A stretch of DNA of 64,000 nucleotides from an uncultured Legionella sp. (GCA_903877115.1 CAIRCS010000175.1:5638-69637); one strand, 5' to 3'; positions 53,245 through 59,770 are shown, counted from the stretch's first letter. Numbers and translations are program-made. The notes: a model not told the origin generated them from the sequence alone.

Positions 53245-53489
53245 ATGCCAAAAAATGCGCCCCAAAAATCTAAAAGTACTGAAAACGACCTTGTTACTAA
53301 TAAAAATATAATTGCTATTTTAGGTAACAATGTAGCCGCTTCACCGTCTAATATTGCAATATATGACGAAGAGGGCTCTATTGATTACCATTCGTAGAAA
53401 ACTATGTTCGGTATGAACCAAATAAACTGCAATACTTTATTGCCAAATTTAATGTTTCCATAATGCAAGCTACGCCTATTACATGGTAA
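53245..53489 (+). pseudogene. Remnants of the adenylation (or FAAL-like) loading domain of the NRPS-PKS gene
   Basis: The ATG at 53245 opens a 50-codon ORF (…IIAILGNNVAASPSNIAIYDEEGSIDYHS-stop, an A1-core-like N-terminus). Frame 0 then reads VENYVRYEPNKLQYFIAKFNVSIMQATPITW-TAA(53487)-MLIENGW... The A2-A4 cores, including the SGSTGxPKG P-loop, are absent. Confidence 0.65.
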
Positions 53490-56036
53490 ATGCTCATCGA
53501 AAATGGTTGGAAAAACGAATCTAAAGTCAGAGTGGTTTGTGGAGGAGAAGCGTTATCTATTAATCTTGCGAGAAAATTAAGAGCTATTTCCTATGATGTT
53601 TGGAATTTTTACGGTCCAACCGAAACTACGGTATGGTCGACTTTCTATAAAATTGACGGGATCGATGAAACTCGTTCAGTTATTGCTATAGGAAAGCCTT
53701 TGGCAAATACAGAAGTGTATGTATTGAACGAAAAATTACAACAACTACCAGTCGGTGAGCCTGGAGAATTATATATTGGAGGGGCCGGGGTTGCAGTTGG
53801 GTACCTGAATCGACCTGAGTTAAATAAAAAATGCTTTATTTCAAACCCTTTTTCTCAAGCAATTAATGACCGTTTATATAAAACAGGAGACCTAGTAATA
53901 CAAGATAAAGAGCGGAATTTACATTATCTGGGTCGTATTGATACTCAGATTAAAATACGAGGTCATCGAATTGAGGCCAGTGCAATAGAAAATGTTGTTA
54001 TGGATTACCAGGGAATCAAAGAATGTGTCGTTATTGATAAGAATCCTGAACAGCAACATGAGTTGGTAGCCTATCTGATTTTAAGCGACGGCCTGTCTTT
54101 GAAGTCGTTACAAGAGCACTTGAAAGCACATTTTCCAAGTTATATGATCCCAACGCGTTATGTTGTAGTAGATGAATTTCCTGTTACAGCAAATGGGAAG
54201 ATTGATCGTAAAAATATTGCAAATATAAAGAAATTTAGATATCTCAATGATGAAAAAAATAAATCGCCTTTAGAAAATAGATACGAAGAAGTTTTAATGG
54301 ATTTGATTCAGTCTTTTCTACAAAGAGATGATATCGATCCGGAAAGCAATTTTTTTGATATAGGTTTGCACTCAATGCTATTGGTGAATATTGCTCAAGC
54401 TTTGAATCGAGTATTAAGTCAACCAGTCAGTGTAGTAGATTTGTTTGAACACCCAACTATTCGTGGTTTTGCGAAATTCCTTTTGAAAACACATCATATT
54501 CAATATGAAAAAGAGGGTAATATTGAAGTTAAAACAGAAAAATTTCTGAGGCAAAATCAATCAAATCCTTTTGACCATCATATTGCGGTCATTGGAATGG
54601 CCTGCAAAGTCCCTGGGGCAGATGACTACAATAGTTTTTGGGATTTGATTATTCAACAAAAGGAAAGTATAGCGTTTTTTAGTGAGATGGAATTAGAAAA
54701 GTCAGGCATACCCTCTGAGGTATATAGCAGGAAAGAATATGTTCCAGCGCGAGGTATATTAGATGACATTGATAAATTTGACGCAGCATTTTTTGGATAT
54801 ACCCCTGCTGAGGCTCGCATTATGGATCCTCAACATAGGGTGTTTTTAGAGCAGAGTTGGTCAGCTTTAGAAGACGCCGGATATTGCGCAAATAATTTTT
54901 CTGGGAAAATAGGTATCTATGCTGGGATGAACGATAGTACCTATTTAAACAATCATTTATTGCAAAATGATCAAATTAAAACAGATTATGATACGCAACA
55001 ACTTTTGTTGGCAACCAGCACTCATTATTTATCAACAAAGGTTGCTTATGCGCTTGGTTTAAAAGGGCCAAGTATTACTATAAATACGGCTTGCTCGACC
55101 GGCCTGGTTTCTATTGCGATGGCTTGCAATAGTTTGGTTAATCATGATTGTGATATGACCATAGCAGGTGCAGTAACCATTGTAACCCCCCAGCAAACCG
55201 GCTATTTGTATCAAGAGTTGGGCATACTCTCGCCTGATGGTCACTGTAGAGTATTTGATGGAGAATCACAGGGTACGGTTTTAAGCAATGGATGCGGTGT
55301 AGTGGTTTTAAAAAGGCTCACAGATTCTCTAAAAGATAATGATCGTATTTTAGGCGTTATCAAAGGATGGGCGATAAATAATGATGGGGCTAATAAAGTG
55401 GGATTTACCGCACCCAGTGTTGACGGTCAAGTTTCATGCGTGAGAGAGGCACTTCTTCGAGCGGAAATTTCTCCCACAGAGGTTGAATATATCGAGGCTC
55501 ATGGGACTGGAACATTGATGGGAGACCCGATAGAAATTGCATCTTTGCGTAAAGCATATGATTATGACATTCATCAAAAATCACAATATTGCGCATTAGG
55601 TTCAGTAAAGGCTAATATTGGTCATACAGATTCTGCGTCTGGTACAATTGGGTTCATTAAAACGATTTTGGCATTACATCATAAAATATTGCCGCCTCAA
55701 ATTAATTATGTTGAAGGCAATCCTAATATTGATTTTGACCGCTCTCCTTATTATGTTAATTGTGAAACACGTCTATGGGAAACAACACATAAGAAACGTA
55801 CTGCAGCTGTACACTCTTTGGGGTTTGGGGGAACCAATGCACATGTCATTGTACAAGAAGCTCCGGATATTAAAACAACACATTCTAAAGGCGCTAATGT
55901 ACTAGTTGTTTCAGCAAAAACTGAACAATCCTTGCAAGCAAGTCTTCACGCTTTATATGGGTATATTTTGAATGTCATGCGGAAAAATTCGGCTGAATTA
56001 CACTTGGCAGATTTAGCTTATACTTTACAATTATAG
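53490..56036 (+). CDS. Hybrid NRPS-PKS fragment: adenylation C-terminal half (A5-A10), thiolation domain and ketosynthase
   Basis: The A-domain cores present are NFYGPTETTVW, GELYIGGAGVAVGY, YKTGDL, GRIDTQIKIRGHRIE and NGKIDRK. The T domain has FFDIGLHSM (Ser295, nt ~54372). The KS has IAVIGMACKVPGA, INTACSTGL (Cys535, nt ~55092), HGTGT and GHT. The ORF ends at a TAG inside the KS-AT linker. Confidence 0.85.
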   Translation: MLIENGWKNESKVRVVCGGEALSINLARKLRAISYDVWNFYGPTETTVWSTFYKIDGIDETRSVIAIGKPLANTEVYVLNEKLQQLPVGEPGELYIGGAGVAVGYLNRPELNKKCFISNPFSQAINDRLYKTGDLVIQDKERNLHYLGRIDTQIKIRGHRIEASAIENVVMDYQGIKECVVIDKNPEQQHELVAYLILSDGLSLKSLQEHLKAHFPSYMIPTRYVVVDEFPVTANGKIDRKNIANIKKFRYLNDEKNKSPLENRYEEVLMDLIQSFLQRDDIDPESNFFDIGLHSMLLVNIAQALNRVLSQPVSVVDLFEHPTIRGFAKFLLKTHHIQYEKEGNIEVKTEKFLRQNQSNPFDHHIAVIGMACKVPGADDYNSFWDLIIQQKESIAFFSEMELEKSGIPSEVYSRKEYVPARGILDDIDKFDAAFFGYTPAEARIMDPQHRVFLEQSWSALEDAGYCANNFSGKIGIYAGMNDSTYLNNHLLQNDQIKTDYDTQQLLLATSTHYLSTKVAYALGLKGPSITINTACSTGLVSIAMACNSLVNHDCDMTIAGAVTIVTPQQTGYLYQELGILSPDGHCRVFDGESQGTVLSNGCGVVVLKRLTDSLKDNDRILGVIKGWAINNDGANKVGFTAPSVDGQVSCVREALLRAEISPTEVEYIEAHGTGTLMGDPIEIASLRKAYDYDIHQKSQYCALGSVKANIGHTDSASGTIGFIKTILALHHKILPPQINYVEGNPNIDFDRSPYYVNCETRLWETTHKKRTAAVHSLGFGGTNAHVIVQEAPDIKTTHSKGANVLVVSAKTEQSLQASLHALYGYILNVMRKNSAELHLADLAYTLQL

Positions 56037-59100: not shown

Positions 59101-59770
59101 GGTGCATCCTGTTGGTGGAACTGTATTTTGTTACATGCAACTGGCCAATATGTTGGATACAGATAGAACTATATATGCCTTTCAAGATCCAAGCATCGAA
59201 GATGAAAAATCATTATTTTCAAATATAGAAGAAATGGCGGTGTTTTACTTAGAACATATCCAAAAAATTCAGGCACAAGGCCCATACTATTTATGTGGAG
59301 CATCGTTTGGTTCGTTGGTGGTAACTGAGATGGCGTACATGCTGGAACAGAAGAAGGAAATAGTTAAATTCATTGGGATAATAGATGGCTGGGCTGCTCA
59401 TGGTCAAACAGATTTTGATATTAATTATGTGAGAGAAATAATTAATCTAAATCATCCGAACTATCAGGAAAATTTACAATTTGATAAACAACCTTTGTGG
59501 GAGTCTCTATTGCGCCAACGTTTAAATATGATGTTGTGCTATCAATATAAGCATGTTGACAGTCCGATGATAATATTTAAGGCCATAGAATTGTTGTCCG
59601 AATACAAGATTATTGATTCTCCAGATAATCATTGGTCTAAATATGCATCGTCAGTATCTGTACGGAATATTCCTGGAGATCATAATACTATGATGCTGGA
59701 ACCCAATGTTGTAATTTTATCTCAAGAAATTAGTAAATGCCTAAATAAAGTCCCTAAAATTCATCCGTAA
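56102..59770 (+). CDS. PKS fragment: acyltransferase, ketoreductase, carrier protein and thioesterase
   Basis: The AT has GFTGQGSQ, GHSIGEY (Ser120, nt ~56459) and HAFHS (malonyl-type). The KR has VITGGLGGVGL and SSITAITGFPGQIDYCSAN. The carrier has FYEIGGHSLLAV (Ser936, nt ~58907). The TE has FMVHPVGG, GASFGS and GDHNT. The frame is open upstream to 55997 and reads IGRQPFKWRTAIAY... from about 56030. Confidence 0.85.
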   Translation: MKVPEQLKKNTVNQTDKRIKRIIFGFTGQGSQYAGMAFDIYREHPYFKQIIDECCICLQPELGIDLRNLLFPKTIEETQFANEQLRKTQYTQPALFVIEYALAKFLISLGIIPHAMIGHSIGEYVAATLSGVLTLKDSLKLVASRGKLMTSTNSGSMLVVPLSIKEISPYLSNDVELVAYNAPSLNVVAGTKDKISQFEKSIQPLLNSKGMSCKTLFTSHAFHSHLMDPILESFYELSSQLVTAKPSIPYVSNVTGHWVSQKDVANKRYWTKHLRHAVLFSKGVDSLNLCEEDVFIEVGPGCGLTQLIRQHKLASNPLLLQTLGSATEFNQNSYQFLLSTLGKLWLHHLPLDWEHLYTNEIRQRCALPTYAFERNSYWVHPIANGNLGNLRKNSGNILYRPVWKQNTKLPTSVLLKEDVIKKCLIIFCDDKEKCALFLEEKLKGVDLYIVSSGLKFQRLDGRYMINPEERGDYALYLSNIKKKYNEYYVIHLWLSDDHPALDEKSYLSKGVYSLLYLTQAFNEVCLDKSLKVLVVTTQVHSVLGSEDILPVKSTILGPCKVIPQEQDNMAFRSIDLESGCDWGSSLIKNLYWEADTILPSDFKEEVAYRGKYRWIKKLEPCDRGAQVVPYNRLKKQGVYVITGGLGGVGLSIAEHLAKNYNAHVVLLTRSEFPLESEWQDYLDNKDSKDHKHDEKIKRLVNIKKDASTLTIEFAAVENFERLQLALQRIKKRFHKINGVIHAAGLAGGGLAQLKTIEAYEHVLKPKLEGTHNLMQCLKDEPLDMMVLMSSITAITGFPGQIDYCSANSVLDAYAGRHDNFNNPVFCVAMNWLAWREVGMAAESKTLLMSLDESNSISAKEGCDIFEKIVNSELNQVIISKEDLNFYAPPAGSLHEFDNNYFQGSNVIDALLNLWQQILGVDRINIDDDFYEIGGHSLLAVSLLSKIRHQFDVKIPSTTLFHVKTIRALATVIESYKQEQEEYSPLVVLCEGDASKAPLFMVHPVGGTVFCYMQLANMLDTDRTIYAFQDPSIEDEKSLFSNIEEMAVFYLEHIQKIQAQGPYYLCGASFGSLVVTEMAYMLEQKKEIVKFIGIIDGWAAHGQTDFDINYVREIINLNHPNYQENLQFDKQPLWESLLRQRLNMMLCYQYKHVDSPMIIFKAIELLSEYKIIDSPDNHWSKYASSVSVRNIPGDHNTMMLEPNVVILSQEISKCLNKVPKIHP

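Follow-up and report, generated by a model that had tools for sequence, protein, structure and literature searches.

The 64,000-nt stretch of DNA analysed here (the window), from an uncultured Legionella sp. (GCA_903877115.1 CAIRCS010000175.1:5638-69637), carries at positions 53245-59770 of the plus strand a hybrid non-ribosomal peptide synthetase-polyketide synthase (NRPS-PKS) gene, with a hybrid histidine kinase gene lying divergently beside it on the minus strand. An earlier note made from the sequence had read the synthase as one assembly line of adenylation (A), carrier (T), ketosynthase (KS), acyltransferase (AT), ketoreductase (KR), carrier and thioesterase (TE) domains that is broken by three lesions. 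This A-T-KS-AT-KR-T-TE order was borne out by a Pfam search, in which the series AMP-binding, AMP-binding_C, PP-binding, KS N-terminal, KS C-terminal, KS C-terminal extension, Acyl_transf_1, KR, PP-binding and Thioesterase was recovered with all domains scoring above their cut-offs. Each of the motifs named in that reading (GLHS, TACSTG, HGTGT, GHT, GHSIG, HAFH, GGLGGVG, Y-x3-N, GGHSL, GASFG and GDH) was found in the translations, and the catalytic features of the KS (Cys-His-His), AT (GHSxG), KR (Rossmann fold and the Tyr of YCSAN), carriers (Ser) and TE (GxSxG and His) are present. The AMP-binding match in the window is limited to profile positions 286-384 of 384.

Intact versions of the gene were obtained through an exact-cluster look-up, a first homology search having returned a best match of 58% identity among the matches listed (up to ~1500 aa). 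Four full-length proteins of 2361-2368 aa, P0137, P0143 (MEI6094388.1), P0144 and P0148, fall in the same 90% cluster as an 848-aa open reading frame (ORF) of the window and are 99.4-99.7% identical to the window fragments. Intact alleles of more than 99% identity are present in at least 24 contigs (8 with P0137 and 16 with P0144), in addition to the metagenome-assembled genome (MAG) protein MEI6094388.1; the intact-gene contigs L003-L006 and L011-L013 were taken from ENA lake metagenomes. The positions 53245 and 59770 coincide exactly with the ends of the intact gene. Lesions were defined by DNA alignment to the intact-allele contig L004 together with tblastn of the intact 2361-aa P0137. By tblastn, residues 1-49 of the intact proteins match frame 1 of the window (96-98% identity), residues 235-1117 of P0137 match frame 3 (99.66%) and residues 1113-2361 match frame 2 (99.4-99.5%). 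The synthase region comprises the following features.

53245-53397, plus strand: NRPS-PKS fragment 1, with 49 native codons (P0137 residues 1-49 by tblastn) up to core A1, then a deletion junction and a TAG stop
53390, plus strand: junction of a 562-bp frameshifting deletion, equivalent to L004 ~6147-6708, with 1 bp of microhomology
53487-53489, plus strand: nonsense codon TAA, from CAA of Gln269 by C>T (Q269*)
53490-56036, plus strand: NRPS-PKS fragment 2, an 848-aa ORF ending at the start of the KS-AT linker
53520-53807 and 53985-54200, plus strand: adenylation cores A5-A10 (Pfam)
53913-53915, plus strand: missense change G411R, found only in the window and located between cores A7 and A8 of the adenylation domain
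54291-54482, plus strand: carrier 1 (Pfam)
54579-55709, plus strand: KS (Pfam)
56032-56033, plus strand: TA dinucleotide insertion in the KS-AT linker, TTAGG to TTATAGG
56034-59770 (start approximate), plus strand: NRPS-PKS fragment 3 (Pfam)
56171-57031, plus strand: malonyl-type AT (Pfam)
58010-58606, plus strand: KR (Pfam)
58823-59014, plus strand: carrier 2 (Pfam)
59090-59695, plus strand: TE (Pfam Thioesterase, PF00975)

Four lesions disable the window copy, and one missense change alters an invariant residue. The loader deletion, which the earlier note had placed near 53394 and estimated at roughly 600 bp, measures 562 bp with its junction at 53390 when sized against the intact allele. 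It removes residues ~50-236, containing cores A2, A3 (the P-loop YTSGTTGKPKG) and A4 (FDIS), and the shifted frame runs into the TAG at 53395-53397. What was said to survive of the loader, about 50 codons and its A5-A10 half, agrees with the 49 native codons and cores A5-A10 that remain; fragment 1 (50 codons, then TAG) gave no Pfam match. The in-frame TAA at 53487-53489 stands as described and is a C>T change relative to all intact alleles, at a glutamine conserved in all homologues. Gly411 is invariant across homologues, even those at 58% identity, and a second missense change unique to the window is H1149N. For the change of frame in the KS-AT linker, where a 1-nt deletion or a 2-nt insertion had been proposed, it is the 2-nt insertion that matches: the TA at 56032-56033 is missing from the intact alleles and from the eroded type C allele described below, which also keeps the CAA of Gln269. 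With the frame broken by the TAG at 53395, the TAA at 53487 and the frameshift at 56032-56033, the window copy has neither the complete A1-A10 adenylation domain nor the single uninterrupted frame of a functional module. Relative to the intact gene there are four synonymous and five non-synonymous substitutions in addition to the nonsense change, giving a dN/dS of ~0.34 from tiny counts. Three of the five (I12T, A2173D and L2219M) differ from P0137 but are common to the intact allele P0143 and are thus standing polymorphisms.

A scan of genome contigs returned one true relative, L019 from another Legionellaceae species, in which the orthologue is 73% identical and forms a single ORF of 2369 aa; L020, from the same scan, carries an unrelated adenylation domain and was discarded. 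Since this orthologue and all alleles of more than 99% identity are single ORFs (2361-2369 aa), the split organisation is not conserved, and no orthologues with conserved split genes, the finding that the earlier note had set against erosion, were found. An intact allele in close relatives together with disabling lesions here is the pattern of a recent unitary pseudogene. The divergent kinase-synthase pair is itself conserved in three other loci, L019 (synthase 73% identical), L001 and L002 (both 58%). The homologue and neighbouring kinase of L002 (10001-16958), which is from a different organism, are split into at least five ORFs, a fragmentation that could be either independent erosion or long-read indel errors.

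The neighbouring kinase gene is damaged as well, and the following features lie between pilB and the synthase.

51345-51430, strand not assigned: palindromic hairpin repeat of ~85 bp in the pilB / histidine-kinase intergenic region, the insertion site of an IS110-family element
51431-51681, plus strand: IS110-family remnant of 251 bp, the 5' end of the element and the first 55 transposase codons (ATG at 51515)
51586-53154, minus strand: truncated hybrid histidine kinase / response regulator ORF, 522 aa (intact 847 aa)
52780-52783, strand not assigned: junction of a 564-bp in-frame kinase deletion, equivalent to L004 ~4972-5535 (~aa 126-313), with AGAA microhomology

The intact 847-aa kinase of L003, L004, L006 and L011 has two PAS domains in tandem followed by HisKA, HATPase_c, Response_reg and Hpt domains. 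Kinase-derived sequence in the window spans 51682-53154 and has lost one PAS module (the second) as well as Hpt, and the only Pfam matches are PAS_4, HATPase_c and Response_reg. Collapse of the tandem PAS duplication was ruled out as the source of the 564-bp deletion, given that the repeats are offset by 402 bp, which the breakpoints do not match. At the other end of the gene, 51431-51681, which does not align to the intact contigs L003-L006, stands in place of 550 bp of intact sequence (L004 3324-3873) that include the 3' end of the kinase gene with its Hpt coding region. In L005 the kinase alone is affected: a 10-bp insertion (~4327-4336) splits it into 530-aa and 227-aa ORFs beside an intact synthase, an independent lesion in the kinase.

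The transposase fragment matches the family model NF033542 over positions 5-56 of 343 (E = 5.7e-6; 25.7 bits against a cut-off of 140). With 55 codons, as against the ~340 aa of a transposase with N-terminal DEDD and C-terminal domains, it is only a remnant, and neither the window nor any of the retrieved loci contained a complete IS110 copy. The remnant starts directly after ...CTCAGGAT, within the right arm of the repeat at 51345-51430. This repeat, with arms GTCATCCTGAGCGAAGCGAAGGATCTC / GAGATCCTTCGCTTCGCTCAGGATGAC, is present by alignment as two full copies and one half copy, the others lying at 22245-22330 and 59804-59855, and the copy at 22240-22335 folds as a near-perfect hairpin (z = -8.7, DNA fold). 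IS110/IS1111 elements typically insert into palindromic repeats. The transposase N-terminus and the insertion inside one arm of a repeated hairpin are both like this family, although only 251 bp of the element are left here, and the arrangement suggests that the hairpin repeat was the target of the IS110 element.

The same remnant, 100% identical, recurs in other eroded alleles of the locus (L007-L010 and L027), which fall into two types. Type C is represented by contigs L007-L010, from two samples each assembled both by the Joint Genome Institute (JGI) and by an ENA submitter, with a PilB identical to that of the window. It shares the IS110 remnant and none of the window's other lesions, and has instead deletions of 1546, 601, 1779, 280, 262 and 443 bp. 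The type C adenylation-domain deletion (L004 6203-6803) overlaps that of the window (6147-6708) without either being nested in the other, and the two are therefore independent. A MAFFT global alignment had placed three separate gaps in the type C adenylation domain; these were rejected, as BLAST segments show one 601-bp deletion. Nor was the overlap taken as evidence for a deletion hotspot, as the type C deletions span about half of the locus. Type D alleles (L014-L017 and L027) come from four JGI samples and one Logan assembly. They have three deletions in common with type C, a 364-bp deletion of their own, and an additional insertion sequence (IS) with a 9-bp target duplication, GAGTTAAAT, in the adenylation-domain remnant. 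The ends of this second IS lie at L027 5958-6076 and L014 1-121, with inverted repeats CTCCGTACATGACAAAAAAATCTGTCATGCC..., and both contigs break inside the element. Across these sister lineages KS, AT and KR segments have been deleted, and the deletion junctions carry 0-8 bp of microhomology.

Outside the two genes the window is almost indistinguishable from a strain of the intact type. Positions 27688-62997 (~35 kb) align with a 36.8-kb contig of such a strain (L006 and L022) at 99.7-99.8% identity, and the only indels outside 51431-56033 are one 2-nt and one 1-nt gap; differences of more than 2 nt are all confined to 51431-56033. Within this alignment 27688-49955 is collinear at 99.67% identity with one 2-nt gap, and neither 48107-51430 nor 53390-62997 contains an indel beyond those listed. 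Flanks with gaps of only 1-2 nt show that error-prone assembly is not the explanation and that the erosion is locus-specific rather than genome-wide.

Taken together, a freshwater Legionellaceae strain has very probably lost, in the recent past, an accessory module of two genes, the cytoplasmic kinase and the divergent single-module NRPS-PKS, the synthase now being a dead pseudogene in three ORF fragments. Of the two origins that the earlier note had offered, an eroding natural-product locus is the one supported, by the intact alleles of more than 99% identity, the single-ORF orthologue, the differently eroded sisters from JGI, ENA and Logan assemblies and the clean flanks; the 'host-restricted' label attached to it has no other basis than the Legionellaceae names under which sources list cluster mates. 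The simplest history we infer from these alignments is that one IS110 event struck the kinase, after which the two genes decayed independently in at least two lineages. An IS110-family element would have inserted into the palindromic repeat just downstream of the kinase gene, and a later deletion, common to all eroded alleles, would have taken most of the IS together with the Hpt end of the kinase. The IS110 lesion probably came first, as it is the only one common to all eroded alleles. Once the module had ceased to be of use, lesions would have built up separately in each lineage: the 564-bp kinase deletion, the 562-bp adenylation-domain deletion, Q269*, G411R and the TA insertion in the window lineage, and six or seven other deletions of 262-1779 bp plus another IS insertion in the sister lineages. 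A slippage-type, illegitimate mechanism of deletion would fit the 0-8 bp of microhomology.

Some observations pull against this history. A single deposited contig carries the window-specific lesions, each of the two exact ORFs (848 and 522 aa) is recorded once, and a search of JGI metagenome contigs, a collection that is incomplete and that also missed L007 and L010, did not recover the deletion junction. A scan of the same contigs for the IS110 junction returned one contig though several are known, so the JGI null is weak. The point substitutions give too faint a signal to demonstrate relaxed selection, the placing of the IS110 event first rests only on that lesion being shared, and at least seven deletions of more than 250 bp against ~0.2-0.5% flank divergence amount to a high deletion-to-substitution ratio. 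The single contig, with no second one carrying the junction, is also what would be seen if the genome carried an intact gene and the lesions came from mis-assembly, mis-binning or sequencing error. To judge from the 'MAG' labels on its cluster mates, this contig derives from a metagenome, and its two deletions are oddly alike in size (562 and 564 bp). Such an artefact, the other origin offered earlier, is nevertheless quite unlikely: the remainder of the 35-kb comparison shows only 1-2-nt gaps, and the junctions in the window carry 1-4 bp of microhomology, for which a k-mer graph assembler should need reads that contain the junction. Moreover, the IS110 lesion of this very contig recurs in at least five others, other alleles of the gene are reproducibly eroded across samples and assemblers, and neither a C>T nonsense change nor the replacement of an invariant glycine is typical of assembly error.

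The species is multi-allelic at this locus in lake metagenomes and assemblers can thread mixed strains, so that real lesions of different co-occurring haplotypes might have been joined in a consensus that no one genome carries. We regard this as very unlikely, given that the lesions are 100-2500 bp apart within a consistent surrounding pattern of single-nucleotide polymorphisms and that a single allele type, that of P0143, shares I12T, A2173D and L2219M over the full length of the gene; the conclusion of erosion would hold even if it were true. The earlier note had also suggested that internal starts might still allow expression of the downstream part, which could then work with a loader acting in trans. 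Two long ORFs (848 and 1222 aa) with intact catalytic motifs and an ATG directly after the TAA are in keeping with T-KS and AT-KR-T-TE proteins made in this way, but the break falls inside the KS-AT linker fold and separates KS from AT. No Shine-Dalgarno-like sequence was found upstream of the candidate starts at 53490 (ATG) and 56102 (TTG), the latter being the only start of the AT-KR-T-TE ORF. No orthologue is split, the partner kinase is destroyed, G411R lies at an invariant residue, and sister lineages keep deleting the same gene, including its KS, AT and KR segments. A functional split is, on these grounds, highly implausible.

The chemistry of the enzyme before its loss can be predicted from the intact allele. 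The loader, left in the earlier note as either adenylation or fatty acyl-AMP ligase (FAAL)-like, is of the first kind: intact P0137 passes the amino-acid adenylation model TIGR01733 with 380.7 bits against a cut-off of 317.4, and the FAAL option falls accordingly. The best PDB matches to the specificity-pocket region are 5u89 and 4zxh, with which it has QATP..W, GGEAL and YGPTETT(V/I)WS in common. Pocket codes taken from the alignment read DILQLGLIWK for 5u89, DILQLGVVWK for 4zxh and DIAQVGFVWK here, so that 6-7 of the 10 positions agree (7 of 10 with 4zxh). Both 5u89 (DhbF module 1) and 4zxh/4zxi (AB3403) we take to be glycine-activating. A whole-chain PDB score to LgrA was rejected as evidence for glycine, as two adenylation domains (254 and 274 bits) add up to its 530 bits. 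The motifs GHSIG and HAFH in the AT are of the malonyl type. The intact enzyme thus probably couples one malonyl unit to an amino acid similar to glycine, as judged from motifs and pocket residues. The A domain would load the small amino acid onto carrier 1, the KS and malonyl-type AT would add one malonyl unit, the KR would reduce the beta-keto group, and the TE would release a gamma-amino-beta-hydroxy (4-amino-3-hydroxy) acid or its lactam. Speaking against a glycine pocket, positions 239 and 322 are A and F here, in departure from the L and the L or V of 5u89 and 4zxh; substrate and product are predictions only.

The closest described case by analogy appears to be the 'cluster B' NRPS/PKS hybrid of Legionella parisiensis, which is predicted to use valine and a single malonyl-CoA unit, with release by the TE of a product that is either linear or cyclic (Tobias et al. 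2016, PMC5126622). Compared by description, cluster B is a hybrid of the same family of bacteria and follows the same logic of one amino acid, one malonyl unit and a TE as the intact allele, but valine is predicted there in place of a glycine-like pocket, and cluster B is described as intact. The synthases of the SwnK type (A-T-KS-AT-KR-T-R, where R is a reductase) from the swainsonine pathway have the same A-T-KS-AT-KR-T order, and one database homologue, P0114, is named SwnK by its source. The SwnK family logic is one amino acid plus one malonyl. Membership was rejected because the C-terminal domain here is the thioesterase PF00975 and not a thioester reductase; the reductase domain NAD_binding_4 gave no Pfam match in the synthase region, and SwnK-type enzymes have a pipecolate-type pocket as opposed to a glycine-like one. 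Olefin synthases of the CurM type (FAAL-ACP-KS-AT-KR-ACP-ST-TE, where ACP is an acyl carrier protein and ST a sulfotransferase) share the KS-AT-KR-ACP-TE core, and sulfotransferase domains are present in some database homologues (P0017 and P0088). This reading was also rejected, as no sulfotransferase domain was matched by Pfam in the synthase region and the loader passes TIGR01733 and not a fatty-acyl ligase model.

Two genes downstream of the synthase, of 118 and 862 aa (59970-62874), were considered as parts of the cluster and rejected, as they are missing beside the L019 and L002 homologues; L001 ends too soon to judge their presence. Neither has a Pfam, NCBIfam or PDB match. The 862-aa hypothetical gene (60286-62874) is split into ORFs of 244, 233 and 361 aa in L018 (1388-3941), and a Legionellales MAG (MCX7118424/5) likewise has copies that are split or partial.

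Elsewhere in the window, prfB (ORF 3705-4724, PCRF/RF-1) is preceded at 3688-3694 by the programmed +1 frameshift site of release factor 2 (RF2), GGGGGTATCTTTGAC (CTT TGA C), which is ordinary and no lesion. A giant ORF of 2915 aa occupies 7013-15760 of the plus strand, its sole Pfam match being SecA DEAD-like at residues 1606-1968. A 2.9-kb segment at 28148-31076, beside tRNA-Leu(CAA) (31109-31195, minus strand), is missing in the related contigs L023 and L024 and has the look of a small islet at a tRNA gene that varies between strains. It contains one ORF at 28692-29645 and another at 29743-30939, the second being an AAA_14/DUF4143 ATPase by Pfam of its counterpart in L021. By Pfam of L021 counterparts, the plus-strand ORF at 43322-44233 matches a PF27266 (CBUA0006_C) protein, and a ParD-like/ParE-like toxin-antitoxin pair lies beside pilD (~47130-47625 and 46541-46905), in a region from which a 365-bp stretch is missing in the MAG contig L026.

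What the window contains is a pseudogene of recent origin, derived from a single-module NRPS-PKS that is conventional though uncharacterised, and an instance of ordinary gene loss in progress. The regions 53245-59770 and 51586-53154 are accordingly to be annotated as pseudogenes and not as three or four 'PKS', 'NRPS' and 'kinase' genes, and the strain is not to be counted as a producer in genome mining. The intact P0137, encoded by a single ORF of 7.1 kb, is an uncharacterised and compact target for expression. Conservation of the kinase-synthase pairing elsewhere and the decay of both genes here suggest that the two are functionally coupled, as does the one initiating IS event in the regulator that the decaying alleles have in common. 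A bolder proposal, which we hold to be doubtful, is that they formed a self-contained module for making and sensing a small molecule that is lost repeatedly in natural populations, sensor first, the product perhaps being a gamma-amino-beta-hydroxy acid or lactam similar to gamma-amino-beta-hydroxybutyric acid (GABOB). Were this so, the intact allele and those of the window, type C and type D would form a dated series for the rate and the deletion sizes with which a large dispensable gene is removed in a host-associated bacterium. The rate of deletion, at least seven of more than 250 bp for ~0.3% of sequence divergence, looks unusually high. The locus is a small but unusually well-resolved example of the loss of an accessory pathway in the wild, in which a single species has an intact allele and at least three others that decay independently.

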